This document shows, piece by piece, positions 22,120 to 55,741 of a stretch of 64,000 nucleotides of DNA. Under the pieces are notes generated by a model. The model did no database searches. It was not told the DNA's origin and saw nothing but the letters and a program-made list of their open reading frames with translations. The position numbers and the translations under genes were made by a program. Position 1 is the first letter of the stretch; the number at the start of each line of letters is the position of its first letter. Origin of the DNA: Tubulanus polymorphus (Eukaryota; Animalia; Nemertea); assembly GCF_964204645.1 (NCBI RefSeq), contig NC_134028.1, forward strand, positions 11,269,263 through 11,333,262. The letters are read 5' to 3'.

Positions 22120-22125
22120 CTTATT

Positions 22126-23423: not shown

Positions 23424-24106
23424 TTAACCACTTAATGAAGATTCAATGTATTGTTCATTATTTGGATCACTGTTCCATAATTCAATGAATTTCTTTGCTT
23501 TATCTAACTGATCTAAATATAATTGTAAATCTAGTCCATTTCCTTCCCTAATATTTTCCTTCTTTTCAAGATGTCTTAAATTTTTCCAATTCCAAATCAA
23601 TTTCTCATTGTGTTCATCGTTCATGTTAAATTTAGAAATCGGCAACACATGATCAATGTCGAAATATTCACCATAATTATTCATATTCATTTTTTCATTG
23701 AACTGATATATAATCCAGGATTTTAAGAATTCATCTGAACAATCCAATTAATAAGATAGTGTAACTGAATGTTTATCTTTACTGAATAAATGTGATAATC
23801 TAGACCTTAAGCATTGTTTCAATTTAAAATTAAAATCTGTTCGGCGCCTTTCTTTTTGATAATTTTTATTCAGTTCTTTATAATATTCTCTATTATTTGC
23901 TTGATATTGCTTAATCGAATCTTTGCCTGTTTCAGTATTATTTCTATAATTTTGTTTGTCACTTAGTTTACTACAAGTTTTACAATAACTTTGCTTACCA
24001 TCTTTCTGAGTTTTTGATTGTAATATTCTGATAATGATTTATCTAATTCACATTTTGAACATTTCTTATGGTGAATATTTATAGTTTGTGACTGTTTACT
24101 CTCCAT
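23424..24106 (-). pseudogene. HNH-family endonuclease (copy A)
   Basis: CSKC..CKTC N-terminus, IDHVLPISKF, NWKNLRHLEKKEN. Confidence 0.7.
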
Positions 24107-25184
24107 TTTGATATCCAATTTTTCATTAAAATTGATTAACATGTTTCCCTTTCTCTAAGTGAGATTTAGTTTTATTGTGTCTTGCTTTTTGAAATTTATC
24201 TATATTGATTTTACATGTTGGACAGTAGTACTTCTTATTTGCTTCCATTTTAATATCAAATTTTTTATTAAAATTGATTTTAGAAGTTATTCATATATAA
24301 AATATCATTTATATGAATATTATTAGAGTAATTGGTAATGTCTTGTTTCAAGTCAAAGGTTGAGGGGGTGAGTGAGTAGAAAAATGAAAATAAATTCGAG
24401 CGTGCGAGAATTTATTTTCATTTTTTTATGAGCTTTCAGTGAAAAAGAATTGGTCGTGATAAATTTTATATTCGATTTCTTGCAAAGTCAACATTGACAT
24501 TGTGTGGTCCATGTGGAGGAGGATATTGCGAATTTCCAGTGTGATCTGAGTAACTTGTCTTGACCAAGTCTCTTAATTTGACTGTCCCAACTTGCTGTCT
24601 GTATCAGGAAATCAGTAGGCTGAGGTGGATCCAAATATCTGATCTCACAAAGCACTAAGGAGTTCAACAATTGTAAAGTTTATTCAGATACTAAATATAG
24701 TCATTTTACAACACTGTATTAAAACATCATTTCACTAAATACATCTCACGAACGGTAGATATAGAAAGGATGTCCCCTGTTCCTTCAGAATGTTCTTTAT
24801 TCAAGGACGGGCGCGCATAGCTCAACTCGCATTAGATTTCGATCCTTGTTAGTTTGTATTCCGAGTACCAGGTAAATTATCAGCGGATTTATCTGATACT
24901 TACAGCAATGTCTTTCCGTCCATTGTAAAGGGCAATTTTGATATCGCTCAAAGCTAAGCAGATTCGAAGAGACGCCATCTTAACCAGGAAGTAACTTGCT
25001 ACTTTACATGTTTGACCTCGTTTGACATGCATCGAAAATGTAAAATGGAGGATGGGCACAACTGGTCTCTAATTGACGATAGAGACCGGTAAGCAGTCTA
25101 ATGAGAGGGGACAGGCAACCAGTCTACTATGTATGGTCTGAAATTCGACTGGATTATGAGAATGCCGGTTTGCTAGTGTATCTA

Positions 25185-26711: not shown

Positions 26712-26804
26712 AGTAATTGGAAAAGTGGGCTTTCAGACCAGAGGACGAGAGGACGAGACACCTCTCATCACCACAAGTAATTTTTTTTTCTTATAAATGG
26801 GAGA
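26712..26804 (+). repeat. Polinton left TIR
   Basis: AGTAATTGGAAAAGTGGGC...TTATAAATGGGAGA is the reverse complement of 47179-47271. Confidence 0.97.
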
Positions 26805-29800
26805 GAGTGACAACACACAAAACAAATTGATGTTAATGAAAATCAATATTATTGCACATATTGTAAAAAATACGTCGATAAATCTAATAAAACACGACAT
26901 GAAAAAACTGCAAATCACATAAAAAATGTTATAGATTTTGAAACACCAGAAAATTCCAATGAAAGAAAAGAAAAATTAGAAAATATGAATGTGGATGAAA
27001 TAAAATGTGAAGTTTGTAATGAATTTATAGTAAAAAGGAATTATAAAAAACATATCAAATCACAAAAACACCATCAAAATTTAAGTAATTATATTTTAGG
27101 AATAGATTATTTCAATGATAAACCTCAAAAAGTAAAAAAACCAACTTCAAAAACTAAATCCATTTCAAATAAACGTTACATGGAAAATGTTAGAAATTAT
27201 ATCGATTCACTAGAATTAAAAGATACAATTGAAATTTTAGAAACATTACATAGTAAAATTGGTCCTGCAGCCATTATATTTAGATTTTTTAAAGGTACAA
27301 AAATAGTAGATTATAGTAAATTTAATGAAATAATGGGAAAAATACTAGATTTCATAACAGATGTTGAATATCCAAAAATTAGTATCTCTGGGAAAGTAAG
27401 TTTTTTTAAAGTCAGAAGATAAAATGGATTATGATATTCAAACAATGATTCAAACTTTACAACAGAAAAGGATATTAAAGGATCATCTTATATTAAATTA
27501 CCATTTACAACAAAAGCAGTAATAAATGTTCAAAATGAAGATAATGAAGGTTTTCTATGGTCAATTATTAGTTGCTTACACCCAACAGAAGATATTACGC
27601 ATAGATTTAGAATAACAAATTACCGGAAATATGAAACATTATATAAAATTGATCAATATCCAGTAACTATAAAGATGATTCCTAAAATAGAAAAAGTTAA
27701 TAATTTAAAAATAAATGTATTTGAATTAATGCAATTACCAAAGACAAAAGGTGAAATTATTAAAGATTATACATTAGAAGCTTTATATTTAACAGAATAT
27801 TATGATGATGAAAATGCTATAGATTTGTTATATTACAAAAAAAGATGAAAATGAACATTATATGTGGTTAAAACAAATTGATTTATTCTTTAGAACAGAA
27901 AGTGATCATCATCATAAAATTTATCTATGTAGAAAATGTTTATCTAAATTTATAACTGAGAATACATTATTAAAACATAAAGAATTATGTGATAATAAAG
28001 ATTTTTGCAAATTAATAATGCCAACAAAAAAAGATTGTAAGTTGAAATTTATCAATCATAAATTTAAAAATATTGTTCCATTTGTAATTTATGGGGATTT
28101 CGAATCGTTGAATGAAGAATTAACTGATCAAGATAGAAAAGAAATATACAATAAAAAGCAATTTTTAAAATCAATGGATAAAGGAAATGAATTAAATGAA
28201 GATATAATTCAAGATCCACCAATTATAAACACAATTAAAAAAGTTCATCAAAGAGCTGCTGCTTATGGAATTAACATAAAATGAAATTATCCTGAATTAT
28301 ATGAAAGTCAATATATTTCTTTTAGAGGTGAAGATGTAGTTAATGATTTTTGTAACAAAATAATTGAAATAGAAAGTGATTTTGCAAAATTATTAAACAA
28401 AAATAAAAGAATAGTTATGACAAAAGAAGATGAAATTGATTTTAATTATGCAACTCATTGTTGTTATTGTGAAAAACGTTTTTATTCATTTGATAAAAAA
28501 GTTAGAGATCACGATCATTTAAATTCAAAAAATCGTGGAGCTGCTCATGAAGATTGTAATTTACAAGCTAAGAAAGTTAATTTCGTACCAATATTATTTC
28601 ATAATTTATCGGGCTATGATACCCATCTATTTATAAAACAATTATCAGGAAAATTGGGCGCAATTAATCAAGAAATAGAAGAATATAATGCTATGAATGG
28701 TACAAATACAAGAAAATATGATTTTAAACTATTAGCTAAGACATCTGAAAATTACATTTCATTTCAATTTGGTTGCATTAGATTTTTAGATTCTTATAGA
28801 TTTTTAGCAAGTTCATTATATAATTTAGCAAAAAGTTTAGTTGATAATGATTTTGTAATAACTCGACATTATTACCCAAATGAACAAGATTTTAAATTAG
28901 TGAGATATAAAGGCGCAATTCCTTATTCATTTTATAAAACACATGGTGATTTTAATGTAACAGAATTATTAAAAGAACAACTTTATGATCAATTAAAAGA
29001 GGAGTATGTGAAAGATGAAGTTTTTAATAGAACATTAAATATTTGGGACCATTTTAAGATAGAAAATCATGGTGAATTAGTTGATCTTTACTTGAAATCA
29101 AATGTTATGATATTGGCTGATATATTTGAAAAATTTAGAGAAGTTAATTTAAATTATTTTAATGTTGATCCCTGTTATTGTTATTCAAGTCCTGGTTTAA
29201 CTTGGCAATGTGGTTTAAAATATACTAACGTAGAATTAGATTTATTAAAAGAACCAGACATGGTTTTATTATTTGAAAAATCAATTAGAGGTGGAATTAG
29301 TGGTGATGGGAGATAGGTATTTTAAAGCAAATGATGAATGTAAATTATTATGTATTGACGCCAATAATTTATATGGTTGGGCAATGATGCAACTTCAACC
29401 ATACAAAATTTTTATATTAACAGAAGTTGAAAATGATGATAAAACTGATTGGGAAAGCGCAATTATGAGTTTAAAAGATGAGGCACCAATTGGTTATTTC
29501 TTTGTTGTTGATTTAGAATATCCTGATAACATAAAGTTTAAAACAAGAATCTTACCTTATTGCCCAGAACATTTAACCGTAGATGATAGTTATTTAAGTG
29601 AATACCAGAAGAAAATAAAACCGAAAGATCATGTTTTTACAGAAAAATTGATATTAACACAAAATAATAAATATAATTATATTGTTCATTATAGAATGTT
29701 AAAATTTTATCTAAAACAAGGAATGAAATTAAAGAAAGTACGTAGATATAATGAATTTGATCAATCGAAGTGGTTAGAAAAATATATAGATTTTAATACA

Positions 29801-31121
29801 CAACAGAGAACCATATCAAAAACAGATTTTGAAAAAGATTTCTTCAAATTAATGAATAATAGTTTTTATGGTAAAACATGTGAAATATTAGAAATAGAAA
29901 TGATATTGAATTAGTAAATAATTCTGAACGATTAAGACATTTATAATCAAGCCCTTGAAATTTAGGAAATAAAAGATTCGAAGATTATTTAACAGCAGTA
30001 AAATTAAAAAGAACGTCAATGAAATTTAATAAACCTATATTCATTGGTTCAACTGTTTTAGAAGTATCAAAATTATTAATGTATGATTTTTATTATAATG
30101 TTTTACAACCACTTTTTGGGGAAAAGCATATTGAAATATTATATTTTGATTCTGTAACAGCTGACACCCCAATATTATTAAAATACAATAACCAAATATT
30201 AATTAGAAGAATTTCAGAAATAATTCCAAAAAAAAATGAACTTTATATTTCATATGGTGAAAAAGAATTAATACAAATAAATGGATTAATGGATGTTTGG
30301 ACAAGAAATGGATGGAAAAAATTAAAGAATATAAATAGACATAAAACAAATAAGAAAATCTATAGAGTTAGAACTAAATTAGGGTTTGTAGATGTTACAG
30401 AAGATCATAGTTTAATAAAACGAAATGGTAATGAAATAGAACCAACTGATATAAAAATTGGAGATGAATTATTACATAAAAGATTTTTCCAAAGAATGAA
30501 TCATATGTCATTTGATGAAATAATTGATAATATTTATAATATAGAACGTGAATCATTAGAAGAAAAAGAATATTTTATCAAAGGATTCTTTATGGGTGAT
30601 GGTTCAGCAGGTGTGTATAATTATGTTTGGGGTAATAAATAGTGTTGGTATTTGCGCAATCAAGATTTGAAATTATTAGAAAGAATAATGAAATACTGTG
30701 AAGAAGTTTTATTCACATAAAACATTTTGAATCATGGATGTTATGAAATCATCAGCAGTTTATAGAATACTCGTTAATAACCCTAAAGATTTTGCTATAA
30801 AATATAATGACGAATTCTATATTCAAGCAATAGTGAAAAGTAATACTTCAACCAAAGAAAAGATAGTGCCAGATTATGTATTAAATGCAGAATATAATCT
30901 TAGAAAATGGTTCTTCATTGGATTCTACGCAGCAGATGGTGCTAAAAAATTTACGAGTTCTCCAGCAATAACATTTGCACAAAAAGGTAAAGTTGGTATT
31001 TCAGGATTGAATCTATTATGTAATTCATTAGGGGCGAACTCTTTTATCGCGACCGAAACCTCCATTCGAACTCCCCGGTGAAAAGTAAAATAGAATGCGA
31101 TCGGAGGAAGTGTGGAGACCC

Positions 31122-32528
31122 ATGATGGCGACGGCGGGTGACAGTTTAACGCTGGCTTTGCCACTCTGATCAGAGTTATTTGATAACGACGATCTAGAGT
31201 CCTATCACTATCACAACGTCGAAGAAGAGAAACTTAAATATCAAGTTGTACTATGCTCGACTCAGTAAGTATCTTAAACACGCACAAGCCATGAGGTTTA
31301 CTTTCTTTTCAATTCAATTAATATGATTTTATTTCGTTTGTCTTAGACTTAATTTTGTTAATAATTAAGTTGCATATGACCTGCATGATAGGAGCTAGGG
31401 GGCATAAATATGTTAAAAGCCACTAAAAGTTAATGTCAGTCTTGTCTGGTGTTCAACATCTACAACTTCCGTGAAAAGTTCTATCATTTTTTATTTTTCA
31501 GGCTGCGGTCAGACAGGATAAAAATAAACATGTACACAGAAAATATAGCAAGTGAATACTTGGACGAAGATTTCAAACGTTTATTCAGATTATCTCGAGG
31601 CACATATGCAACTCTGAGTAATCTACTCGAACCATTACCAGAGATGCAAACTGCAGTAATAAACAGAGGTCGACAGGCAGTTAACGCAGAAAAAAAGATC
31701 CTTGCCACTTTGTGGTATCTAGGTACATTGGACACAATTAGACAAATCTCAGACAGGTTCGATGTTTCTGAATCGTGTGTTCTAAAGTGTATTACAACGG
31801 TATTATCTGCTATAACTAATGGACTTACAAAAAAGATAATTAAATGGCCATCAGTTGAAGAGCAGGAAGAGATTTCTGATGGATTTTACCAACGTAATGG
31901 TTTTCCTGGAATTATTGGGGCAATTGATTGCACACACGTTGAAATTAAAGCTCCTCGCAGGCCAGATAAACAAGTGTTTGTGAACCGGAAATCATATCAT
32001 TCCATGAATGTTCAGGCAGTGTGTAAAGACGACATGCGCTTCACCCATATTTATGTCGGCTGGCCGGGAAGCGTGAATGATTCGAGAATATTAAAAAACA
32101 GTGACTTGTAGAATAATTTCGGTTTATTTGGTGACAAACATATTCTGGGCGATGGAGGTTATCCCTGTCGCAGATGGTTAGTGAGGCCATATCGTAACGA
32201 TGGCAATATGACTCGAGCTCGTAGACGATTTAATTACTTGTTGTCCAGTAATAGAGCAGTCATAGAAAGAGCGTTTGGTAGAGTTAAAGGTCGATTTAGG
32301 CGTCTCCATTATGTCAATGTCCATTCCATTAAAAAAATTATTATTATCATCACCTCTGCATTTGTCTTGCATAATATCTGTTCAATGTCAGATGAAGATG
32401 ATCTTGAAGATTTACATGACGTTGTTGACGATGGCCTGGAGGCAAATAATGGTGCCGAGATCATAGGTGCTGATCATGAAGGAGAACAGTATAGAAACGA
32501 TTTAAGATTGCAATTGGTTGGAGAGTAG
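31122..32528 (+). pseudogene. Harbinger (HARBI1-like) DDE transposase
   Basis: FRLSR, GAIDCTH, NRKSYHS, GWPGSVNDSRI, GDGGY, IERAFG; in-frame TAG at 32109; inferred intron 31265 (GTAAGT) to 31501 (TTTCAG). Confidence 0.9.
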
Positions 32529-33617
32529 TATATCTTCTACCTTGCATACAAAGTTTTAATGCATTTGTAACACTTAAGTCATTAAATTAGTATTCAAGTC
32601 ATTTCTTTTTGTCCAATTCAATTATTTGCACACAGGTGACACAGAAGTTTGGTTTAGAGACTGAGGATGTTTGATGTATCAACTTTTATCAAAATGCGGC
32701 CTCGACTCCCTGCCCCATTAGAATTTCACCAATTTTAGACTGCCTTAATAGCCACAATAACAACAATTGTTTTCATTATAATATACGAGGAGTTTAAAGC
32801 AATCAATTTCGAATTTATCATAACAGTGCATGCCTGGCTTCATGTGCAAAGTATACTATGCGTTGGATTTTTGTGGCTATTAAAATTTCTGCCAAAAGTT
32901 TATCATTCAAACTTCTCGGTTAACCCCCTTACACTGGATGCTGACCAGGGCCCCTAACTCCTTCCAAACCAAAAATGTTTTTCAAGGTCCTTGGATTTTG
33001 AAAATTTTAAGGTTTAAGGCCTAGTTGTTATACACACAGATTCTACTGAATTAAATGGTTTACCTGGATAAACAGTACTGATTTAGGAGTCTTAAATTGT
33101 GATATGAAAGTGATGTATACACTCCTCGAAAAGTCCTTGAATTCTGGAATGACTGATCCGTAGGAACCCTGCTGATTGGAAACTGTTTCTCTGTTCCATA
33201 CCGCCCACAATTTTACTAAAGAGAATGCCATGAAAGGTATTACAGCAAAGGAACAAAATGTTATTATAAACGTAAAATAAAATTTTTATTATGGAAATCC
33301 TCCATCATAAAATTATAAAAATATAAATGATAATATAATTTCCCCATTTTATCACGTAACCAAAATTTCCCTCATTTTTAGAACCGCTCCCCTTACCGCA
33401 AATTCAAACAGTATGTAATAGGATTGTGAAATGATATAGTACGAGATATACCGTAGCATAAGTCATTTACAAATATTTTCAATCAAATTAGTGAAAACTG
33501 TAATGTACAACTGAAAAAAAACTTGAGGTAGTCAGACTTATGCGTACCTTTTATCATAAAACAGCATTTAAAATACTGTATTGAACAAGCTGGATCTTTA
33601 CTTTTTTGAAATAGCAC

Positions 33618-34292
33618 TTACAAAATCTTTGAACAAAGACATTTTTCATTATGCATTTGCATGGCCATGTCCTTGTCTATTTTACGTCGTTCCTCAGCTC
33701 TTTCTTCCATGGCCCCCAAATATTCAATTACTGTTGAAGCTGCTGATTTTTTTGTTCTACATTTATCCGATGGAGAGATTTCATCAAGCTTTCGTTTTTT
33801 AACAATAGGTGATAATTCACTATCATCATCAGTAGATGAATCATGAAGAGGATTACTATCTCTACTACTGAAAGTAACTGGTTTTATATTTGCCGATTTT
33901 ACACCAAGAGCGTCATCCAGCTCATTTTCATACACATAATCTTTGACATAGCCTGAACCCGATTTATTTTTTGCATCTTTTACATTTTTAAACCCTGTAT
34001 TTATAGTTCTCCATCTACCCCTTATTTGCTCAGCACTAAAATCAAAATCATCATTCTGCATTTCTTTTGCGATCTTCATCCACAACATGGACTTACGCAT
34101 CTTCCCTTCATTTACTTTATCAATATTTTTGCGATACAAATCGATCAACTTGAGGGTTGACTGTTTGGTCCATTTTCCACTTGCAGTACCAGCCTCGTCC
34201 ACTATTACACTCCGAGTTTCGGAAACAGTTAGATTTTCAATTGACCCTGAAAAAAAACCTAGTCTAATAACTTTGGAAGAATAAACCATCAC
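33618..34292 (-). CDS. Harbinger Myb/SANT-like DNA-binding protein (last exon)
   Basis: WTKQSTLKLIDLY..LWMKIAKEM..QIRGRWRTI trihelix tryptophans; upstream exons not resolved. Confidence 0.85.
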   Translation of the reverse strand: MMVYSSKVIRLGFFSGSIENLTVSETRSVIVDEAGTASGKWTKQSTLKLIDLYRKNIDKVNEGKMRKSMLWMKIAKEMQNDDFDFSAEQIRGRWRTINTGFKNVKDAKNKSGSGYVKDYVYENELDDALGVKSANIKPVTFSSRDSNPLHDSSTDDDSELSPIVKKRKLDEISPSDKCRTKKSAASTVIEYLGAMEERAEERRKIDKDMAMQMHNEKCLCSKIL

Positions 34293-35295
34293 ATGTTTTT
34301 AAATAATTTGCAACCAAATCCTTTCCAAATTTTAAAAAAATAATGTTTTGTTGATTTTCTGCAGTATTGCAATGTCAATGCTTCTTGACTTCCTTATTGC
34401 CAACTGCCAAATGAATCTACTAAAATATTAAATTTGGCCACGATGCCCCTGAAATATATGTTTAATATGCAGTTAGATAGAAAACATTCGAATATGATGC
34501 ATATGTACATACCTGAAGTTGATGCTTCTTTATATTCAATATGAAATGCTACACCGGCATCTTGCGTTTCTCCTATAATTTAATCAAGGCGACAAATTTA
34601 AAACTGGAATTTTGACACGTACAACTTACAAAACCGTTCAAAAAGTGAAAACGGGCCTATAGCCAATGTAGAGTGATTCTTTAAAAATATGCATACCGGT
34701 GCCACCCTGTGCACGTGCGCACAAAACGTATCATAATTTCGTAGCAGAGTTTTCAGAATACATGTATCTAAAAATATTACATAAACAAGAAATCAACATG
34801 TACTGAGTGGAAGTATTACGAGATAATGAAGATTAGAGTTAACTACAAAACTCCATGAATTAAAAGTCATCTAAATATTTAAATCATTAGTTGAAAAAGG
34901 CAAGTCATGAATTAACATAAATTACCATATTCATTGTGGCACAGTCGACTAATTATGAAAAGTTACACTAAACACAAGTAACACTACGACACTGAATTGA
35001 TTCTGCATTCATTCTAATGAGGTTCAGTATGCCGCCACAGCTTATGCCTTACCTCTTTGATGAATTATTCTATTATAGATATCATTTTCGACGACAAGTG
35101 TTATCGTCTGGCCATTCCTCTCAATCGTTAAGGCTTTTGTTGAACCAAGGTTGTCCTGGCCAGAAGGTGCTCTGTAAATATAAATTAATCCTACAAAATT
35201 AATTTAATTTTTTAAGCTACTCTAAAAAAAATTAAACCTTCGGCCTATAGATACATAACCCTATTTTTTCCAATTGCCATGTTATAAAGAAGCAA

Positions 35296-35513
35296 GGTAA
35301 AAGTGCAGATCCGCACCTCTCGTGATCGACGCAATCTACTGAATGACTGAATCCAGGCTAAAATCTTTCTAATGATGATATCTTAAAATTTACCAATGGC
35401 AATGTACTGAATTGAATTGCTGATGTCTGATGACATTTTGAATCTGAAACAATGATATCTAATGTAATTGATTGAACCGTTTATGCGAAGAGGTGTGGAT
35501 CTGCACTTTTACC
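35296..35513. mobile_element. Merlin-like MITE inside Harbinger 1
   Basis: TIR GGTAAAAGTGCAGATCCrCACCTCT; 8-bp TSD AGAAGCAA at 35288-35295 and 35514-35521. Confidence 0.8.
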
Positions 35514-36578
35514 AGAAGCAACTTAGGCCTGCCCTTAGGAGGTTAAGTGATCTGCAAATGGAATACTGCTACTTTTTAATGAATAAAATTGCATTGGATT
35601 GAATTTGTTTGATTACAGGCTAAGTTGAAAACACGTCGCCGATGGACGGATGAGGCGCATATATTATTGCGCGTCGGATGTCTATGATCAATAGAATGCA
35701 AACCTGGATAACAATATACAAATATGTCTTTTCCAACAAGAAAATAGAGAGGATAGGTAGAAAATAATAGGATTCATACCGCACTGTCACACGTTCGGTC
35801 GCCATGTTGGCTCCACACAAAATCCGAATCACACCACCTCGACAGAAAGGAGGTTTCGGAGACTCCAAAAAGTCACGTGACCAATAAAAGAGTACGATTG
35901 GAGGCAAACGGATTCTCCGATCTGATAAAAGAGTTCGCCCTAGGTTTTAATATGAATATTGGATTGATTAAATCTATGCCAAATTGTTTTAATCTAAGGC
36001 ATACAGAAAAAGAAATAACTGAAGAAGTTAAAGATTTATTTGAAACATCTAACCCATCAGATTATGTTTATGATTTATCAACTGAAGATGGCACATTTAC
36101 CTGTGGATTTCCATTAATAGCGGCCAATACTGATGCGTACATACTAAAAATCAAGACAAATGACATAACAAAAGACTTAAAAACATTAAAACATCATTTT
36201 GATTCTAGCAATTATCCCAAAGATCATGAACTATTTAGCAATGATAATAAAGATTCTTGGTAAGTTTAAAGATGAATTAGGGGGTGATGAAATGATTGAA
36301 TTTGTTGGGATAAGAAGTAAAATGTATAGTTATAGAACAAAAGATCATGAAGCTAAAAAGTTAAAAGGAATAACAAAACATGTGGTTGATAAACATATAG
36401 AGTTTCAAGATTGTACTAAGTGTTTATATAACTCAATTGTAATGAAACATAAAATGAATTGTTTAAGATCAGAAGATCACGAGATGTACATTAATGAAGT
36501 TGAAAGAACTAGTTTGAATCCATTTGATGATAAAAGATATATTTTGGCCGATGGAATAAAAACATTACCTTATGGTTA

Positions 36579-37451
36579 TTAAAACATAAAATCAAGATCA
36601 TCATACTCGAAATCGCTACTGGTTTCTTCATTTTTATTTAATTGTTTAGGTTCTTCCATTTCATTTTTCTCATTTAAATAAAGTTCTATATTGTACCACA
36701 TTTCATCTCGCTTTCTTTGTTTCTTTTTGTTCGTTAATTCATCAAATGGAATTATAATATCGATGTTTAAAAAATTTACAATCTTATTTAAAAAGAATTC
36801 ATAATTAATTGAATCTGTTATTCTATTATCCACATAATATCTTAATATTTTTTTTGAATGTTTCTTTTATATTTTCCATATCTTGTTCTGTTAATTTAGG
36901 TTTTTTATAATAATCGTTGAATAATAGATATAAATACATTTTCTTTTCTTGTGTGTTAAATGTTGATGGAATAATTGTTTTATAATATCTTTTTTAGTTA
37001 TTTCACCATTTTTATTTTCTATCATTTTCATTTTGTCAAGCCATTGCTTATATTCTGGTGTATGATCTTCCATAGAAAATATCTCAAATATTTCATTTAG
37101 ATTTTTTAATTTTGGTTCTATAAGAATATCTCTAGTTTTTTCATCACCCCATAAATTCCTTTGCCATCCACATTCATTACAAAACATCACAGAATTTTCT
37201 TGTCTTAAGTACTCATAAATACATTGTGGGCATTTTTTTCTATCATAGCTTGGTAATAGATCTTCATTAAGTTCTTGGTATTTACTTACGTTTTCTTTAT
37301 GTTTTTTTGTTCTATTAAGTAGATTTAAATTACTTGTTGTAATAACCAATTTACAATATTTACAATATGTTTTTCTTACTAATTCATTATATTGTTTTTC
37401 TAACTTTTCAAGTGTTTCTTCATTATCTGGTAACGTTTTCTCATATTTCAT
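36579..37451 (-). pseudogene. Polinton accessory Zn-binding protein (two ORF pieces, possibly one gene)
   Basis: YCKYC, CPQC..CNECG; convergent with pPolB. Confidence 0.5.
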
Positions 37452-37459
37452 TTTTTCTA

Positions 37460-37890
37460 ATATTTTATTTTTTCTTTCATTGAATTCTGTTTCAAATTTA
37501 TTAGAAATTTTATCTATATGTGCTTTACGAAATTGATGATTCTCCCAATCTTCTATATTTTCAGGGCTATATTTTATTCGACAATGCTCACAGAAATGAT
37601 CTTTTACATTATTCTTATCATAGAATAAGAAAGGTCTTTTCCAAATAATTTCAGGTTCAGTTTCAACAGAATTACTATTACTTTCGTTACTATCAACATT
37701 AACCGTTGTGTCTTTAATTTTACACTTCTCTGAATGTTTTTTAACATAATTTCTTGAGAATAATTTATTACAATTTGGGCAGTTTATTTTAGGGGGTTTA
37801 TAATTTTCATCATGTTTTTTTCATATGTCGAGCCATATTACTTTTTCTTAGAAGTTCACCACAAATTTCACATGGTATCTTCTCATCCAT
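37460..37890 (-). pseudogene. Polinton C2H2 zinc-finger protein, frameshifted
   Basis: TAAATG start; MDEKIPCEICGELLRKSNMARHM, then CPNCNK and CEHC in other frames. Confidence 0.55.
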
Positions 37891-37959
37891 TTATTTAGGA
37901 AAAATTTTATCAAAATTAATTTTTAGTGATGAGAGGTAATTTTTTTATGTTATAAATAA

Positions 37960-38715
37960 ATGGTAGAATTAAAAGAATACTGAATATTTGTTGATTCTAG
38001 AAGACTTACAAATTATAAATCACATTATTTACTAGTACAATTAGATAGAGAATTTAAGAATTGTGTTGATTTAAAATTAATAAATGTAAGTTTATGTAAT
38101 TCTTTTTATAATATATCGGATAAAACCTTTGAACATAGAGGGTTTATGATTTATATGAGAAATAAATATAAATGGTTTCATCTATTTTTAAAACCAGGAT
38201 TATATAATTTAGAATCATTAGCGCAGGAAATTAATAGAAGAGCTCGGTTGAAAATCGGGGGCACTTCTGTATTTGAAATTAAATTTAATAAAATTGATAG
38301 TACTAATAAAATAAGAATAAAGATATCTAATGAACAGCATAAATTCATGGTAAACAAACCAATGGCTAAAATGTTAGGAATTAAACCGCTTACAGTTACT
38401 GGAAACGCAGAAGGAATCTCAAATATAATACCTTTTACACACTTTTATATTTATTGCAATTTAATCGATCCTACAAAAACTTTCGAAGCTACTAAAGAAA
38501 CAATTTGTAGTTCTAGTATATTAACTATTTTACGGCTAAAAAATGTTAAACAATTTGGAACTCAAATAAATTATAATTTAACAGAATGTGATTTTAAACC
38601 TTGTATTCCTCAATTTAATAATTTTAGATTAGAAGTAAGAAATCATAATGGATATTTAATTGATTTGAATAACTTTCCTATAATTTATGAATTAATTATA
38701 AGATGTAGAGAGTAA
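37960..38715 (+). pseudogene. Minor capsid protein (penton) candidate
   Basis: One TGA at codon 8; IFVDS..NSFYNI at the N-terminus, FYIYCNLID..FRLEVRNHNGYLIDLNNFPIIYELII at the C-terminus, the pattern of Polinton pentons. Confidence 0.7.
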
Positions 38716-38731
38716 TTTTTTCACTATATAA

Positions 38732-39292
38732 ATGAATATAACTGTTGGAGCGAGTATATGTTTTGGATTCGATTTTAAATATGAGAAAGAAATGAAATTT
38801 AACAGTACTGATGTAATTACGCGTATTAAAAATATTGCATTTTCTAATGAAACAACATTTGAGTATGAAAAAACAATAGATAAAGAAACTTTAAATGTAG
38901 AAAAGATTGTTAACGCTTTAGCATTTACTGGTGGTGGTTATTTATTTAAGCATATTGATAAGAATGGTTCATTATCAGAACAAAAAAGACATAATTTAGC
39001 ATTAGAGAAATACAATAAAGCAGCAGAAGAATATAGAGAAAAGTGGCAAAACTATATGGATTATATTAACAAGGAATTATATGATCAGAAAATTTCATAT
39101 AGAGATTTTCAATCAGTTGATGATGCAATGAGTTTATATAACGCAGTAACAAATAAAGAAAAATTACATCTATACAAACCTAAATTATCAGATTATTATA
39201 CCCCAAGTAAAGAAGAACAGAAATATGAAATAATTTGGATTTTAGGCGGAACAGTTATTGTTATATTTGTAGCATATAAATTTACTAATTAG
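38732..39292 (+). CDS. Polinton protein of unknown function with C-terminal TM helix
   Basis: ALAFTGGGYLF..EQKRHNLALE; hydrophobic tail; TAAATG start. Confidence 0.7.
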   Translation: MNITVGASICFGFDFKYEKEMKFNSTDVITRIKNIAFSNETTFEYEKTIDKETLNVEKIVNALAFTGGGYLFKHIDKNGSLSEQKRHNLALEKYNKAAEEYREKWQNYMDYINKELYDQKISYRDFQSVDDAMSLYNAVTNKEKLHLYKPKLSDYYTPSKEEQKYEIIWILGGTVIVIFVAYKFTN

Positions 39293-39311
39293 TAATTTTT
39301 TTGCTAAATAA

Positions 39312-39742
39312 ATGGATGATAAAGTTGATAATATTGATATTATTCCTCATGATATAAATAAAACTAAATTAAAAATAAATTTAGAAAAACAAATATTAGA
39401 ATTTGAAAGTGACTTAAAAATAAAAAAGAAATATTTAAAAAGTAAAATTGTATATTTTTTATTATCAGTGGTTCAGTTACAATTAGTTCTGTAATAACAT
39501 TTCTAGCAAAATTCAGTCCATTACCACCTTTAGCTATATCAATTGGTGTGTAAGGTTTAAGTTCAAGTGTTAGAACTGGCATAAGTTCAAAATTAAATAT
39601 AAAAAGTAATAAAGAAAAAATTAAAACTAATATAAAAGAAATTAATAAATTAAAAAACACACTAGATTATATAATAAGTTTAAACGGTAACATAACAGTT
39701 GAAGAACAAGATAAGTTATTAAAAGAATTAATAAATTATTAA
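39312..39742 (+). pseudogene. Small protein with hydrophobic hairpin and coiled coil
   Basis: TAAATG start; frameshift near 39460; SGSVTISSVITFLAKFSPLPPLAISIGV followed by K/E-rich helix. Confidence 0.5.
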
Positions 39743-39758
39743 TTTTTTTATTATATAA

Positions 39759-41132
39759 ATGGTAGATAGTTTTCCAAAAGCTTTTCAATATAACAAATCA
39801 ATTAAATATAATATTCCTGCAATAGATTTTAACAAAAATATTACATATAAAAATTTAGTTTTAAATTCATCAACTAATCTAGAAATTTATGTTACTGAAA
39901 CACAGTTTTTTATTTCTAAGATGGAAAATATATTTAATAAATATGAAGTTACTTTTACTTGAGATGAACATCATATATATAAAGTAAAATCTAATATGAA
40001 ATATTGGCAGAATCAATTAAATTTTGCTGTTTAATGTGCAACAACTGGTTGTGGTATAAGTTGGAATGATCATTTAAATAACTTAGATAAAAATTTGAAT
40101 TATTCTGATTTAAAATTAATTCACACAATATTTAGATTTCACACATATTTTCAAATCAGAATAATTTTAAATGAATTAGAATGTCCTTTACCCGGATCTA
40201 AATTGTTTAAAGAATTGGATAATAATATTAATCCATCTAAGTTTTTTAAAATATGTAATGAATTTAATATAAATATTAATTCTGATTTTAGAGTGCATGG
40301 TAAATTGCAAGGTATTGGTGAACAGTATGAAATAAAAAGAATTGATTATATGCATAGAATTGGAGCTTATCATAATTATAAAATTGATAATAATAATTGT
40401 TGGATTAATTTTATTTTAGAAAATAGTGAAGATTTTACTGAAGCTGGAATACAAAGAATAAATCAATCTATTAGAACTTATTTGATATGTATTTTAGGTG
40501 CGCAAGTTGAAACAAGATCACCAATAGTTGGAAATGATAACACTTCATTTGATACACAGAAACAATTCAAAGTATTATTTGAAGATTCCATTCATAATGA
40601 TAAAAATAGATTGATTCCAGAAAACATTGTAAGATATCAAAATTATTTAGATAAATCACATATTAGATTAAATTATTGTATAGGCCCTAATCTATTAATT
40701 ATTTATAATGATTTAGTATTAAAGATGGGAAATATAATTGGTTATAATAATCTAATTAAAACTGCAACAATAAATAATTCATTTGGATTGAATGATATAA
40801 ATAAAAAGATAATTACTGCTCCAAAATTAATGGAAGGTGAAAAAAATAAAAAACATATTCGATCAACAGAAACTAAAACTAATAATATAAAATTAAATAA
40901 TGATTCTAAACCGGATTACAATACTATTGAAAATGGTGCCGCACGGCACCCACACGGTGATATTAAAACTGATAATATTCAACATGAAATAATTAAACTA
41001 AATGATGATAATAAATCCCATGAAAATGCTAAATTAGCTATAACTTGTATAGGAATTGTAATCGGAGGAACATTATATTTTAAATTTCAATTTTTTTATT
41101 ATGTAAATGGCAGAAGGTGGAGAAGCTTATGA
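39759..41132 (+). pseudogene. Polinton protein of unknown function
   Basis: ORFs 39759 and 40095 are in frame across stops; WQNQLNFAV.CATTGCG, FRFHTYFQ, ILGAQVETRS; hydrophobic C-terminus. Confidence 0.7.
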
Positions 41133-42533
41133 AGTGGGAGAAATGGGAAATAATAATGATGATAATAATGATGATGATAATAATGATGCTGAAACTAATA
41201 TTGATAATGATGATGAAACAGCGTATAGTTCTAATTTAGGAAATAGTGGTTCTAATGCCCCATTAACAGCTGACTATGATAGAAGAACTAGATCGAGAAT
41301 AAATCCTGAAAATGAAAATTCAGATTTAGTAAAACAAAATTTAGAATATAATGAATATATTCATTATTTCCAACCTATATTTGGAAGATCTGGGTATAAT
41401 ATAAATGCCAGAGGCGCCAGACTTTTAGTACAAGAATTAAAATTTTTTTTAAGGTGAATTTCATTATCGTTTGAAAGATGATTATTATATTGATATCTCT
41501 TATAAAAAACTAAACAAAAAATTAGCAGAATCAACTTTGCTTAAGTTAGACCTATCTTGAATTAAAAGAATAAGAAATAGTAATGAAATAGAAAATGGTA
41601 CCAGCACAGAAATTATTAAAAATGAAAGAGTATTTAAACAAAGAATTAATGACTTATTTGAAACAATCAATAATAATTTAGAACCAGAAACAACTTCTGG
41701 TAAACTTAAATCAAATAAAGTTCCAATTGAAAAACTTTTACCAAATGGTTTACTTGATGCAACAGATCAAGAATTAGAAGATTTAGATATATTTTCTGAT
41801 AAAGCAATAAGAGAAATTATTAGTATAAGAAATGAAGCTGATAAATTTGCACATAATATAAGTATAAGAGATTTTAAAATTAGAACTTTAGAAAAAGATA
41901 GAACTGATAAAATTAAAGAAATAGAACAATTAAAATTAGATAGAGATAATAAAGTTATTGAAGAAATTGAATTTATAAAAAGAAATGCATATTTAGAAAA
42001 AGAAATAGATGATTTAGAATATAACAGAATTTCAGAAAGAAGAAATTAAATTATTATTAAAATTATATGATTATAATATTAATAGATTAAAAGTTATTTT
42101 TAAAAATTTGTTGATTAAACCAGATTCAGAAATATCATTGAAAGATAGAATAAAATTATTATTTAAGTTAGAAGGAATAACAATTCTTTCAATTCTAACG
42201 GCTGTAACTATGGTATTTACAACAATTGGTTTAGCTATATCAAATTCACTGAAATCTACACCATATCCTAATAAACCAGATAAACCCCCGAATGATAATA
42301 ATTCTATACAAGATAAAGTTAAGGATGGTTTAAAAAAATTAGCAAAATATTTATGGGAACTATCTAAAAAATCTGCTGCAGCTTTACCCGGAGTTATTGC
42401 ACCAATTGTTGGTTTTATATTGAAATCTGCAGGAAACATAATTAACTTTGCTGCTGAACATATTATTTTATTTTTAATTACAGTTGTAAGTGCTATTATT
42501 TTTGGGTTAGTGAATATGACAAAAAATAGATAA
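41107..42533 (+). pseudogene. Acidic N-terminus / coiled-coil / multi-hydrophobic-helix protein
   Basis: TAAATG start; frameshifted; C-terminal hydrophobic and amphipathic helices (AAALPGVIAPIVGFIL). Confidence 0.6.
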
Positions 42534-42553
42534 TTAATTTTTTTGTTAAATAA

Positions 42554-43796
42554 ATGAGTGGGAGTTATATAAATCCTTCTAAGAATCATAGAATATCTAA
42601 TGCTATTAAAGCAGAAAGATCTCATCATATAATTACTCATAACCCTTCCAATATTAATCCCGATGAAACTTTATAGAATCCCTAGATTATCAAAAAATAC
42701 TTTTTATGTTCCAAATAGTATTTATTTATCAGCTGATATAAAAGTAACTGGCAATAATAATAATTATATTGTTGATAGTGTTCGAAGATATTTGATTAAA
42801 AAATTAACTATAAAGATTGGTCCAGAAACAGTTTTCTCATTAGATGATTATAATTTATTTATGCATTATAAAGATTTATGGTTGACTAAAGAAGATAGAA
42901 ATAATATGATATTTCAAGGCATCCAATCAGAAAACCAAAATAAATTAAGATCAGGAGCTAATGACGCAATAGTAACTCGTACCGCAGATAATTTGATTAA
43001 AAAGATTTATGGAAGCAAATATCAAATTCCATTAAAGTTTGAATTGATAAATAATAATGCACCTTTGTATAAATACGCAATACAAGAAGATGTTATATTC
43101 GAAATAACATTTGCTCCTGTAAATGAAATTGTATTATCTAGCGTTGTTAAAGATATGGGTTATAAATTATCAAATATATGTTTAGAATATGATACAGTAA
43201 CTGATGAAAATATTGCTAACACAATTCAAACTCAATACAATCAAGGATTTTCATCATTATATGATTATATTGATAAATTTAAAACTGTAACTATTAATGC
43301 AAGTGATGAAATAATTAATGAGAATATTAACTTCCCAAGAAGATCTATTAAAGGTATATTAATATTTTTCACAACTGCAACATATTCTACTGGCGCAATA
43401 CAGGTCGATAATTATCATAATCCTGAAATAACAAAAGTAGTAATAACTATCGAAGGAATAGCAAATAAAATATTTTGTCAATCAATGAGAATGATAGATC
43501 AATGGCCAGAAATTAGAAAACATTTTATGAATGAAAAAGTAAAATCATCTGAAAATTGTAATATTAATCAAATTGATTATTATACCGGCAATAAATATGC
43601 ATTATGGTTAGATTTCAGAACAACAGAGGATAATTCATTACATGGTTCTGGGAAAAAACTACAGAACACTAAAGATGGAATACAATTATTCATGAAAAAG
43701 AAAAAAGGAATCAAAAATTTTAAAATGCACATTTATATTATATCTGACGCGAAATTAAATATTGTAAATTCTCAATTAGGTAGTATTCAATATTAG
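42554..43796 (+). pseudogene. Major capsid protein (double jelly-roll) candidate
   Basis: ~410 codons with one frameshift near 42675; INPSKNHR..ITHNPSNINP, LSNICLEYD, NINFPRRSIKGIL, YALWLDFRTTEDNSLHGSG resemble Polinton MCPs. Confidence 0.8.
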
Positions 43797-43826
43797 AAAT
43801 ATTAAGTTAAAATTAACAATATATAA

Positions 43827-44953
43827 ACGGGTGGTAAAAAAACTCCTAAAACTAAAGAACAATATTTAAGAAATTTATATTACAACCCTGAGAGTTCGGT
43901 TGCTTATTCTTCTGTAAAAATTATATGGCGTCAAGTAAAACAAGATAAATTAGTTAAGATAATCCCACAAGATTTAGTTAAATATAAAGATATAAATGAA
44001 TTTATGTCAGAACAACCAACATATACAACACATAAAAAAATTGTTAGAAAATATAAAACTCGTAAAACTATGGTAAGTTATGTAGATCAACAGTGGCAAG
44101 GAGATTTAATTGATATGAAAAATGTGAAGAAAGATAATGATGATTATTCGTGGATATTGAATATGATTGATATTTTTAGTCGTTATGTATGGAGCTTCCC
44201 ACTTTACAGAAAAGATGCTGTACAAACATCAAATGTTTTAAGAAAATTTCTTTCGGATGATAAACTAAAACCAGAAAAAATACAATTTGATGATGGAAAA
44301 GAATTTGATAATTCACTAGTTCATGAACTCTTAGATAATCATAATATTAGATATTTTTCAACAAAATCGGATAAAAAAGCAGCAGTTGTTGAACGATTTA
44401 ATAGAACATTAAGAACAAGAATGTGGAAATATTTTACAGCAAATAATACTTTTAAATGGATTGATGTTTTACCAAAATTGATAGAAGGTTATAATAATTC
44501 TTACCATTCTTCTATTGGAATGAAACCTATTGATGCTAGAAAACCTGAAAATGCTGAAATTGTTTGGAATAATTTATATGGAGCATTTCTCGTAGATGAT
44601 TTTGGAGAACCTAAATTTAAGTTGGTCAAAATGTTAAAATTTCTAAGTATAAAAAGATATTTGACAGAGGATACGATCGTAATTTTACTAGAGAAATATA
44701 TAAAATAAAAAAGGTAATAACAACAAAACCATATGCCTATAAATTAGAAGATTTAGATGGTGAAGAAGTTGATGGGTACGTTTATGAAGAAGAATTAAGT
44801 TTAACTACTGAAAATCTAGAACAAGAATATAAAATTGAAAAAGTGTTAAAAACAAAAACTATTAAAAGAAAAAAATATTCTTTGGTAAAATGGGTTGGAT
44901 GGCCAGATAAATTTAATGAATGGATATTATCAAGTAAAATTAAAAATATATAA
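43827..44953 (+). pseudogene. Retroviral-like (rve) integrase with C-terminal chromodomain
   Basis: WQGDLIDM, IDIFSRY, QFDDGKEF, VERFNRTL; YKIEKVLK..LVKWVGWPDKFNEWI. Start appears mutated (TAAACG); frameshifts after 44620. Confidence 0.92.
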
Positions 44954-45544
44954 ATGAATAAGGAATTATTTATATTTGAGCCTCATAATATGTTAATTTC
45001 TGGCGTAAAAAATTGTGGAAAAACTTATTTTATATTAAATTTATTAGAAACTATTTATAAAAACTATTTTGATAAAATAGTATTATTTTGTCCAACATAT
45101 GAATTTAATCAAACTTATGATAGAAATATTACTAGAAATAATAAATTTATTATATTTAATCCTAAAACAGTTAAAGAAAATTTAGATGATTGTATTAAAA
45201 TAGCAATTGATATATATAAAGGATCTAATACATTATTTATCATAGATGATTGTGCTAATCTACATGATTCAAAAGTTAGAGAAAGTGAGTTATGCTATTT
45301 AGCTTTTTCTGGGAGACATTTTGGGATAACAACATGGGTTTTAAATCAAAAATATAATTCAATTGTTAAAGATTTTAGAGAAAACATTAGATTTCTAGTT
45401 TTATTCTACAATAAAGATAGAAAATCGATGAAAAATGCACTTGAGGAAAATGATATTATTCCACATGATTTACACAATGAATATATGGATAAATTGAAAA
45501 ATAATAAAAGATCAAAATTACGATTACAGCACCCATTTAAATAA
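44954..45544 (+). CDS. A32/FtsK-like packaging ATPase
   Basis: Walker A GVKNCGKT, Walker B FIIDD, SGRH, LNQ. Confidence 0.92.
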   Translation: MNKELFIFEPHNMLISGVKNCGKTYFILNLLETIYKNYFDKIVLFCPTYEFNQTYDRNITRNNKFIIFNPKTVKENLDDCIKIAIDIYKGSNTLFIIDDCANLHDSKVRESELCYLAFSGRHFGITTWVLNQKYNSIVKDFRENIRFLVLFYNKDRKSMKNALEENDIIPHDLHNEYMDKLKNNKRSKLRLQHPFK

Positions 45545-45556
45545 GAATTTATTTAA

Positions 45557-45743
45557 ATTCAACTAGCTTGTTAATCTAGTATATTTTAGTTACATTCTAG
45601 TTGAATTCTAGTTGTTAGTAGTTGAAACACAAATCAAATAAAATTCAACAAGAAATAAATAAAAACAACAATATTTCAACTAGCTTGTTAATCTAGTTGA
45701 ATTCTAGTTACATTCTAGTTGAATTCTAGTTTAATTCTAGTTG
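45557..45743. repeat. Intergenic CTAG-rich direct repeats
   Basis: TTCAACTAGCTTGTTAATCTAGT twice plus several (GA)ATTCTAGTT units. Confidence 0.7.
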
Positions 45744-45774
45744 CAACAACACAACTAATTTGTTTGTTATGTAA

Positions 45775-46664
45775 ATGGGAGGGGAAAAGAAAATAAAATC
45801 TAAAAATAGTGATGTTCCAATTGAAAAAACTTAAGATGATTTAGGAATAACAGAAACAAAATTAACTCCAGATGATGGTGCTTTAAATAATGTTACAACA
45901 AATAATAATTATGAATATTATCTTTACTGCAAACATCAATTAGAAATATTAATAGCATCTAGGAAATGTAAAAATTTTATCGGTAAAAATTTAACTTATA
46001 ATGAATTAGATACAATGAAATCAGATGAAATTATTAGATTATTTAAGATTTATGAAACTGCGAGAACAGCTAGAATTAATGATGCGATATCAGAAAATGT
46101 AGTAAGAGGTTACAGTAAATTATGTAAATACATGCTACCAATTGAAGATGAAAATAGATTATATTCCGATTTAAAAAATGATTATTTAGTTATGACTGAA
46201 TTAAATAAATGGATTGGATATTTATCATTTCAATTAGGTGGATTTATGACATTATTATCAACTGGAGTTATAACATTTTCAAATATTGAATGTAAAAACT
46301 TTTCTATAATAAATGAGCAAGGTGGAAGAAGTGAAGAAAAAACCGAGAAATCCGAAACAAATTGAATGGTCTCGACAATTAGGAATTAAATCACAAGAAT
46401 ATAAAAAAGCTGTAAAAGAAAAATAAGTAATGAAAACGTTAATAAAAATGGTGAAAATATTGTTATTTCTACTCCTTCTAATAATAGAATATTTGATAAA
46501 TATCTATATTTTGCAGCTGGATTTGTAATTGTATTCATTTTGATTGGGTGTAGTTGGTATAAGAAATCAAATAAAATTTATGATATTTATAATTCTGAAA
46601 CAACTGCTATTAAAAATGAAAATACTTCTGGAATTCCAAAATTGACAATAAAAAAATGGATTAA
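45775..46664 (+). pseudogene. Polinton genes X (45775-46365) and Y (46313-46664)
   Basis: YYLYCKH, LYSDLKNDYLVMTEL; Y has PKQIEWSRQLG plus a TM helix; homologous to genes in copies A-C. Confidence 0.75.
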
Positions 46665-46860
46665 TATTTTAGAAAAAAGCAAACAATTTTTTTTAATTAA
46701 TTGAATATCACCTTGTGGGTTCCGTACGGCACCATCTCACTACTTTAACTATCACTGTGTGGGTGCCGTTTATGGCACCATCTCCGCGGAGCAATTGAAT
46801 TGTCCAGATAAGTCATTTCGGATTCTAGATATTCATTATTTTTATTATCAATTTATTTTT

Positions 46861-47186
46861 TTAATCAATAATTTCTAAATCATGATGACCATCTTCATTT
46901 TTTCCAGGATAGATTATTTCAAATCCTTCTAAATCTTTTAATTCCTCTGTACTCAATGCAACCCATTTATCAGGTAAAAATACTTTAAATTCTTGCGATG
47001 TACTAACATTACAGTAACTTAAATTCGCTGATACTTTCTCTCCATATTTAGTTTTTATCTTTTCTAATTTCAATATTTTATGTTCAATTTCTTTTGTAAC
47101 ATCAACTAACTTTTTTATTTCAAATTGGTTTTTGCTGGTTTTATTCTGTTACTTATTGTTGCTAAGAATGTTTTTCTATCTCCCAT
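46861..47186 (-). pseudogene. Small beta-rich protein (possible OB-fold), start codon inside right TIR
   Basis: KLEKIKTKYGEKVSANL..FKVFLPDKW; frameshift near 47120; fold is a guess. Confidence 0.45.
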
Positions 47187-47271
47187 TTATAAGAAAAAAA
47201 AATTACTTGTGGTGATGAGAGGTGTCTCGTCCTCTCGTCCTCTGGTCTGAAAGCCCACTTTTCCAATTACT
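47179..47271 (-). repeat. Polinton right TIR
   Basis: Reverse complement of 26712-26804. Confidence 0.97.
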
Positions 47272-53739: not shown

Positions 53740-53810
53740 ATTATAACACTGAAGGTCTTAGATATCAAAAAATGTAATCTCGATTGTATATATCTGTTTT
53801 AATATTGTAT

Positions 53811-55735: not shown

Positions 55736-55741
55736 AATAAG

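Follow-up and report, generated by a model that had tools for sequence, protein, structure and literature searches.

In this study we describe a decayed LAGLIDADG intein in catalytic motif C of the protein-primed DNA polymerase B (pPolB) of a Polinton. The window, by which we mean the whole stretch of 64,000 nucleotides analysed here, likely belongs to an animal genome. Taken as a whole, the reading we propose, with this likely host, a likely single entry from a giant virus and a likely spread by homing, appears probable to us.

The intein lies in a Polinton/Maverick bordered on both sides by CACGCG, a 6-bp target-site duplication, and a self-BLAST gave 95/96 identity between its left and right ends. 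The element, and a Harbinger/PIF transposon that sits inside the intein, comprise the following features:

26712..47271, plus strand: Polinton/Maverick, 20560 bp (15648 bp without Harbinger), with TIRs and target-site duplication
26712..26805, plus strand: left TIR, 94 bp, beginning AGTAAT
26826..30150, plus strand: pPolB N-extein, Beta-class, with zinc finger, EndoVII-like insert, exonuclease and polymerase motifs up to YFD
30151..31031, plus strand: intein 5' part with block A (Ser1), block B (TEDH), LAGLIDADG motifs 1 and 2 and block H
31032..35940, no strand: Harbinger/PIF transposon in the intein, with 17-bp perfect TIRs and TAG duplication
31029-31031 and 35941-35943: the two copies of the TAG duplication
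31434-32528, plus strand: DDE transposase (DDE_Tnp_4) of the Harbinger
33618-34298, minus strand: Myb/SANT gene of the Harbinger
35944..36128, plus strand: intein 3' part with block F (VYDL) and block G ending in Ala-Asn
36129..36582, plus strand: pPolB C-extein, beginning with Thr+1 (TDAY), with a frame change near 36251
42633..43796, plus strand: candidate major capsid protein, a 387-codon ORF named from its position and size
43827..44953, plus strand: rve integrase with C-terminal chromodomain, in two frames
44954..45544, plus strand: A32-type packaging ATPase (Pox_A32 E 3e-13)
47178..47271, minus strand: right TIR, 94 bp, identical to the left TIR

According to the profile search, pPolB, integrase and ATPase are all encoded by this one element. 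The candidate capsid ORF presumably resembles Polinton capsids; repeated searches for a double jelly-roll capsid protein gave no database match for it. An adenain-like protease had no match among the window ORFs of at least 100 aa, and the Rfam search returned no matches. The protein that hosts the intein is a PF03175-type pPolB and not an RNA-primed PolB (PF00136), and its N-extein is broken by stops at 28282, 29944 and 29956 and by several frame changes.

The insert separates the first Asp from the Thr of YxD-TD in motif C, with the boundaries YFD|SVTADT from 30151 and LIAAN|TDAY at 36128/36129, and without the Harbinger it measures 1066 nt or ~355 codons. It holds Ser as block A nucleophile at 30151, a block B (VDVTEDH) with Thr-x-x-His, two LAGLIDADG motifs with their acidic residues (FIKGFFMGDG and FFIGFYAADG), the block F Asp (VYDL), the terminal Asn and Thr+1. 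A first-pass annotation of this DNA had claimed the same split, blocks and length, all of which we recovered, and had called the insert an intein, for which a check against Hint profiles was run. The Pfam Intein_splicing match of the N-terminal piece alone stays below cut-off (17.8 vs 35.8); its score against TIGR01445 intein_Nterm is 34.1 bits, above the cut-off of 24.5, and over 357 columns the insert shares 62% identity with an unbroken intein, so its motifs are not due to chance. Judged by its sequence, the insert is confirmed as a class 1 (canonical) intein with a predicted splicing route. The copy is dead, as had been claimed: besides the Harbinger and the damage to the polymerase, the insert does have a stop at 30640 and a frameshift near 30709 (previously put at ~30710), and a second stop at 30728 had been missed. 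The penultimate residue is indeed Ala and not His. We do not read this as decay or as an anomaly, since His is likewise missing from 260 of the 489 relatives extracted (His 229, Lys 218, Ser 15, Phe 9, Ala 2). Nor do we accept a co-conversion tract for the copy in the window: at four residues its downstream flank is closer to P0367 than to P0487, the nearest relative of this copy, but change on the P0487 branch can explain the pattern.

Unbroken intein-bearing pPolBs, whose existence the first-pass annotation had thought possible, are present in public assemblies (P0001, the P0133 family, P0146, P0147 and P0004). These proteins match Pfam pPolB plus Intein_splicing and/or LAGLIDADG; LAGLIDADG_3 is above cut-off in 5/5 of them, and P0133 passes PF14890. 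Ser1 is invariant among 69 aligned relatives, Thr-x-x-His of block B occurs in all five full-length Polinton relatives, and Ser1, the block B Thr and His, the block F Asp, the terminal Asn and Thr+1 are conserved across relatives, the penultimate residue being Ser in P0001 and Lys in P0004. Moreover, the acidic residues of both LAGLIDADG motifs are kept in 5/5 full-length unbroken inteins. Modelling (pLDDT 92.9) gives the P0001 intein a predicted Hint-LAGLIDADG fold: its best PDB matches are the TliVMA, PhoVMA, PI-PkoII and PI-PfuI inteins, the I-DmoI fold was also matched, and its best BFVD matches are giant-virus polymerases. An earlier fold of P0003 was set aside (7 rows, C-terminus missing, pLDDT 53), and phmmer of P0003 against PDB gave no matches; the fragments P0231, P0236, P0239, P0304, P0305 and P0331 were compared by BLAST only. 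No Polinton locus with an intein was found in viral, metagenome or prokaryote contigs, with P0001 among the queries. The only inteins recovered by these scans were of giant-virus type or weak archaeal ones, the phage collection gave a single weak match, and no pPolB-type flank occurred among the locus inteins of the insertion-site tally.

From where did the intein come? One tree was built from mimivirus, the Polinton rows, the best-ranked 70 of 115 cluster representatives (300-450 aa) and 20 of the remaining 31 representatives. In it, 8/8 Polinton inteins form one clade (support 100/100), nested among pol-c inteins of RNA-primed PolBs in a clade that is supported at 100/99 and includes four members from Imitervirales. 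A second tree places 6/6 Polinton inteins at 100/99 inside a 98/96 clade; neither tree contained an archaeal pol-c intein. The giant-virus sister group differs between them (73/95 in one, a long-branch join in the other), and L018-type viruses were rejected as donor because of this instability, even though they share the GFPLIVKN end. The trees agree with the giant-virus affinity claimed earlier, and the pol-c site named then is borne out by the YxD|TD position and by kinship with inteins of that site. Because its host is a pPolB and not PF00136, we regard the Polinton intein as a variant at the pol-c site, outside the known allele set. A jump from RNA-primed to protein-primed polymerase, also proposed in that annotation, is retained; its placement in this very element is not, the intein having more likely entered the Polinton pool once and then spread. 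The transfer may have happened during co-infection, and perhaps in an animal rather than in an earlier host.

Among the polymerases the intein is scattered. It requires 5 changes for 5 rows, and a single clade was rejected (p-AU 0.0003); a quick polymerase tree with P0004, from which P0437 and P0446 were dropped (site not matched by the pattern), required 7 changes for 7 rows, with all Beta-class carriers inside one 100-supported subclade. P0004 belongs to the other polymerase class, and its extein is ~24% identical to P0001/P0133 compared with 46-49% for its intein; between the classes, intein identity is 42-49%. Within Beta, intein and extein trees share their branching order and the identities are alike (62 vs 57, 51 vs 45, 42 vs 48%), and long co-descent with repeated loss therefore fits these data as well as homing among kin.

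Empty sites had been predicted, and we found them in six members of the P0133 family as well as in the closest relatives of the window polymerase, where the site reads YFDTDS. Among 120 listed relatives, 99 sites are empty versus 2 filled. The P0133 cluster has 136 members; among the 15 listed, 7 carry a 346-aa intein, 6 are precisely empty and 2 do not cover the site. This evidence is at the protein level and comes from 13 of the 136 members. The intein occupies residues 1042-1387, and exactly those residues are absent in the six empty members. Intein-plus and empty alleles are otherwise 94-98% identical, and every fixed difference between them (10/10) lies at most 45 residues from the site, within the closest 90 columns, with none in the remaining 1101 (Fisher p = 4e-12, which overstates the clustering because the sequences are not independent). 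The extein polymorphisms at 863, 1458 and 1520 occur in intein-plus and empty alleles alike. The six empty alleles represent three site haplotypes, none of which matches the intein-plus flank. At the level of sequence, homing with co-conversion should leave just such a pattern, the cutting itself being predicted.

It might be argued that a genuine giant-virus intein descended mostly vertically in one Beta subclade with many losses, some by conversion from empty relatives, and that the P0133 flanks reflect ordinary recombination between subfamilies and not nuclease-driven homing. The congruent branching and similar identities of Beta inteins and exteins, and the confinement of all Beta carriers to one subclade, speak for such a history, and the three empty haplotypes could equal three loss events. 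However, the excess of empty over filled sites would need very many precise losses, P0004 requires a lateral jump between polymerase classes, and the nuclease has kept its acidic residues, something a long-idle nuclease would not be expected to do. We consider this explanation unlikely. Slightly less likely still is that intein and homing are real and that the host of the window is a fungus or protist, which would mean Polinton first but not animal first. Mucoromycota are the commonest phylum in two of the top three Atlas pPolB clusters (4 and 5 members with a record), Mollusca also occurring in the Atlas clusters near the window pPolB, and Beta-like polymerases are described outside animals (PMC8502044). 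Among the 52 ORFs in the flanks of the element, none was recognised as a host gene. On the other hand, the flanking LINE ORF1 (DnaJ plus esterase) has look-alikes in Arthropoda, Annelida, Chordata, Brachiopoda and Ctenophora, all six look-alike clusters with taxa being animal (only the first scores at least 0.9), and of the 120 listed pPolB matches, those with a eukaryote name are four insects at 38-41%. Very improbable, finally, is a Hint-like cleavage domain without extein ligation, as in hedgehog or bacterial intein-like domains: the penultimate His is missing in the window, P0001 and P0004, but the mimivirus intein, described as canonical, also has Lys there (PMC549080), the splicing residues listed above are conserved, many unbroken near-identical copies exist, and a working polymerase needs extein ligation because the insert splits its catalytic motif.

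On the reading we favour, splicing of the precursor in an unbroken element would follow the class 1 route, with a Ser1 shift aided by the block B Thr and His, then transfer to Thr+1 and Asn cyclisation, restoring the catalytic motif. Since splicing rebuilds this motif, the intein would be costless to keep and hard to lose. Once freed, the intein would cleave the empty site in a further Polinton that shares its nucleus; repair templated by an intein-plus copy would then transfer the intein together with short flanks. Unlike single-copy animal genes, a many-copy host element that moves horizontally would keep providing new empty targets, and surviving empty copies would tend toward altered target sites. 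The window intein died together with its element. The bolder proposal, that animal germlines harbour a live homing intein of giant-virus LAGLIDADG type that moved from RNA-primed to protein-primed polymerase, jumped between Alpha and Beta and spreads from copy to copy while empty copies evolve cut-resistant motifs, seems to us possible but falls somewhat short of probable.

According to reviews, canonical inteins are known from prokaryotes, unicellular eukaryotes, fungi and giant viruses, and animals have only hedgehog-type Hint domains (PMC7765530, PMC5784728). The literature, leaving aside paper supplements, Repbase annotations and subscription papers, yielded no Hint-type intein in pPolB or animal nuclear DNA. 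A full intein in a Polinton would be a way into the latter. Homing requires that donor and target DNA meet in a single compartment; an intein descended from giant viruses would therefore be a physical trace of cells shared by Polintons and Nucleocytoviricota, and the Alpha/Beta jump points to recombination between distant Polintons; both bear on the question whether animal Polintons are virophage-like viruses. With filled and empty alleles side by side, the P0133 family allows homing, co-conversion and the escape of target sites to be tested within a single many-copy family.

The window element shares TIRs, the 6-bp duplication, pPolB, integrase and ATPase with Beta-class adintoviruses or group 1 Polintons (PMC8502044); the main text of Starrett 2021 (PMC8502044) mentions neither intein, homing nor LAGLIDADG. 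Closest to the Polinton inteins are the pol-c inteins of mimivirus PolB and other Nucleocytoviricota, which lie in the same tree neighbourhood at ~39-41% identity and have the same site (YGD|TDS equivalent), Ser1, Asn and Thr+1, ~350 aa, LAGLIDADG and a non-His penultimate residue (Ogata 2005, PMC549080). Their host is the RNA-primed PolB of a giant virus, whereas the Polinton inteins sit in the protein-primed PolB of an integrated element of 15-20 kb, with flanks that vary (YFD, YMD, YLD, SSD, ASD) unlike the mimivirus-type site. The archaeal PI-PkoII (2cw7), TliVMA (7qsu/7qss) and PI-PfuI (1dq3) have the same Hint and two-motif LAGLIDADG fold as predicted for the P0001 intein; they reside in archaeal cellular genes and show 13-18% identity to it in structural alignments. 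HNH and VSR nuclease inserts have been reported inside Polinton pPolB2 (Jeong 2023, bioRxiv 2023.08.22.554363), whose main text mentions no intein, Hint or LAGLIDADG, and Krupovic 2024 (PMC11071308) speculates that they result from intein invasions. The window differs from these in a complete splicing domain that splits motif C and in precisely empty alleles in relatives. The survey of Green 2018 (PMC5784728) lists nuclear inteins such as Prp8, VMA1 and others from fungi, amoebozoa, choanoflagellates, algae and an apusozoan, together with viral inteins from giant viruses; the part of this survey considered here has no entry for an animal nuclear or Polinton intein. Inteins of the Prp8/VMA1 type also home in nuclear DNA, but the window intein sits in a many-copy mobile element.

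The reading frame of the protein-primed DNA polymerase (pPolB) in the Polinton is interrupted at 30151 (...IEILYFD|SVTADTP) and resumes at 36128/36129 (...FPLIAAN|TDAYILK). The first-pass annotation had described an intein here, split as YFD|SVTADT...LIAAN|TDAY with blocks A and B, two LAGLIDADG motifs, block F and a terminal Asn with Thr at +1, and we read all of these in place. After removal of a nested Harbinger the insert measures 1066 nt; the C-extein reads TDA (36129-36140). The window contains:

13488-18933, LINE; ORF1 has a DnaJ domain first, then an esterase, and ORF2 an endonuclease and reverse transcriptase
21200-24800 and 51300-62300, additional Polinton remnants, which contain integrase, chromodomain and ATPase sequences and share 69-84% identity with the main element; the polymerase motif C region was looked for here and none was found
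23427-23747 (-) and 51623-52171, ORFs in these remnants with a weak HNH match (HNH_4, E 0.005 for the former)
26712-47271, main Polinton with 94-bp TIRs beginning AGTAAT, flanked by a CACGCG duplication
from 30151, intein part 5' of the Harbinger, with block B (VDVTEDH), two LAGLIDADG motifs and block H
31032-35940, Harbinger with 17-bp TIRs and a TAG duplication, encoding a DDE_Tnp_4 transposase together with a Myb/SANT protein
35296-35513, small element inside the Harbinger, bounded by 25-bp inverted ends
to 36128, intein part 3' of the Harbinger, with block F (VYDL), ending in Ala-Asn
48803-49447, second Harbinger-type transposase, its DNA not strongly similar to the Harbinger in the intein
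51.3-62.3 kb, large mirror-image structure in which the arms are 91-98% alike
62466-63644 (-), reverse transcriptase ORF (RVT_1), which we take to resemble DIRS

This copy is dead, as had been claimed: two stops (30640 and 30728) and a frameshift near 30709 break the intein, and the polymerase has three further stops and several frame changes. The N-terminal piece of the intein scores above the TIGR01445 cut-off but below that of Pfam Intein_splicing. The Polinton genes identified by profile searches are pPolB, an A32 ATPase and an rve integrase carrying a chromodomain; no protease was found among ORFs of at least 100 aa. An ORF of 387 codons is a capsid candidate, with no matches in Pfam, NCBIfam, viral contigs or the PDB. 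We assign the polymerase, on sequence grounds, to the divergent type named Beta in the available part of Starrett 2021 (PMC8502044), because its PF03175 score is weak and its identity to P0004, a strong-PF03175 protein, is ~24%. Clusters of pPolB look-alikes mix phyla, Mucoromycota and Mollusca among them, and the eukaryote-named matches among those listed are four insects. Profile and ORF searches found no host genes in the window; look-alikes of the flanking LINE ORF1 come from animal phyla in all six cases with taxa. We consider an animal host likely.

Intact copies had been predicted, and protein searches recovered complete pPolBs whose intein, at the same site, is unbroken: P0001 (354 aa, 62% to the window intein), the P0133 family (346 aa, 48%), P0146 and P0147 (337-339 aa, ~40%) and P0004 (350 aa, 46%). 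All five retain Ser1, TEDH, both acidic LAGLIDADG residues, the block F Asp, Asn and Thr+1. The P0001 intein, aligned with 68 relatives, has a predicted fold with pLDDT 92.9, which matches archaeal Hint-LAGLIDADG inteins in the PDB and giant-virus polymerases in BFVD. The penultimate residue is His in 229, Lys in 218, Ser in 15, Phe in 9 and Ala in 2 of 489 extracted inteins (a redundant set). P0002 and P0003 are partial carriers, and the fragments P0231, P0236, P0239, P0304 and P0305 match Polinton inteins best. P0231 (167 aa, on a 710-bp NCBI contig) has the junction YFD|SVTADT of the window and is its closest relative among the matches listed (78% over query residues 1-89). The 140-aa fragment P0331 starts its intein at YTD|SVTAD and best matches the P0004 intein (53%); its upstream extein has no match among the other sequences compared, and it is possibly a third polymerase class invaded. 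P0375, labelled Sulfurimonas in UniRef, is a pPolB of Polinton type with 54% identity to the window; the label probably stems from a mis-binned contig.

Intein-plus polymerases are scattered among empty ones (five changes for five rows; seven for seven in a quick polymerase tree), and a single clade is rejected (p-AU 0.0003). The P0004 extein shares ~24% identity with those of P0001 and P0133 (611 columns), its intein 46-49%; this intein adjoins the window and P0001 inteins with 99/88 (95-row tree) and 98/84 (55-row tree). It has thus made a lateral jump from one polymerase class to another. Within Beta, the shared branching order of intein and extein trees and their similar identities speak against a purely mobile intein; they would fit co-descent as well as homing among close relatives.

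Intein-minus alleles had also been proposed. Among 120 listed of 391 window-polymerase relatives, the site is empty in 99, filled in 2 and not covered or matched in 19; the nearest relatives read YFDTDS with an extein 81% identical. The P0133 family holds both states. Of its 136-member cluster, 15 members are listed, and their contigs range from 57 kb to 1 Mb: seven have the intein, six are missing precisely residues 1042-1387 and two leave the site uncovered. Compared with P0133, the empty members show 94-98% identity. Filled and empty classes share no residue at ten positions, all within 1035-1040 and 1391-1431 and none in the other 1101 columns; three extein polymorphisms are common to both. 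The empty alleles form three site haplotypes, none matching the filled flank. Such a pattern would result from homing with co-conversion, together with the survival of targets that resist cutting; the accessible part of PMC10643990 reports both for archaeal MCM inteins. Recombination without cutting can produce it as well. Motif C is unusually varied in empty alleles (DCDS, DTDA or DTDC instead of DTDS; P0356, P0358-P0360, P0362 and P0363 of the P0133 family, P0439, P0443, P0446, P0450 and P0377), which may reflect escape from cutting.

The anticipated kinship with pol-c inteins held, but no donor was singled out. In the 95-row tree the eight Polinton inteins group together with 100/100 support (bootstrap not fully converged), within a larger clade (100/99) of RNA-primed-polymerase pol-c inteins; motif-B and topoisomerase inteins lie outside. 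The 55-row tree agrees (100/99 within 98/96). The Aylward 2021 supplement places four contigs of the wider clade in Imitervirales (IM_01 twice, IM_07, IM_13); two of six ids checked are absent from it. Because the two trees disagree on the sister group, we name no donor. A prokaryote-genome scan gave archaeal matches of 23-40%, mostly covering part of the query and left out of the trees, and two full-length matches of 32% in bacterial bins. Since the Polinton inteins are nested in a giant-virus-type clade, the transfer would have run from giant virus to Polinton. P0005 and P0006, divergent giant-virus-type polymerases, carry two related inteins each (motifs B and C), and P0024, P0112, P0265, L014 and L083 are same-family inteins in type II topoisomerases at DxD|TDG.

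Class 1 splicing would rebuild DTD, following established intein chemistry (PMC7765530, in part). The freed intein might then cut empty Polinton copies, with filled copies serving as repair template. Entry may have taken place in a cell occupied by both a Polinton and a giant virus; in insects, Polinton-like viruses sharing cells with entomopoxviruses have been reported (PMC11296320, in part).

Full-text literature searches, with Repbase and most subscription papers outside their coverage, turned up no description of a Hint-type intein either in a pPolB or in the nuclear DNA of an animal. The available parts of PMC12220804, PMC3671162 and PMC5718144 contain general mentions only, and that of PMC11071308 has one sentence which, citing Jeong, suggests that nuclease inserts arose from inteins. 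In the portions available, the inserts of Jeong 2023 are HNH/VSR only, and Starrett 2021 mentions no intein. PMC5784728 (section 5, in part) lists nuclear inteins with no animal nuclear or Polinton entry, and PMC549080 (in part) describes the mimivirus intein as canonical. The element here is real and of a familiar type, sits at an already known site and shows signs of having moved recently; its host class has not been described before, and the kingdom is probably also new for such an intein.
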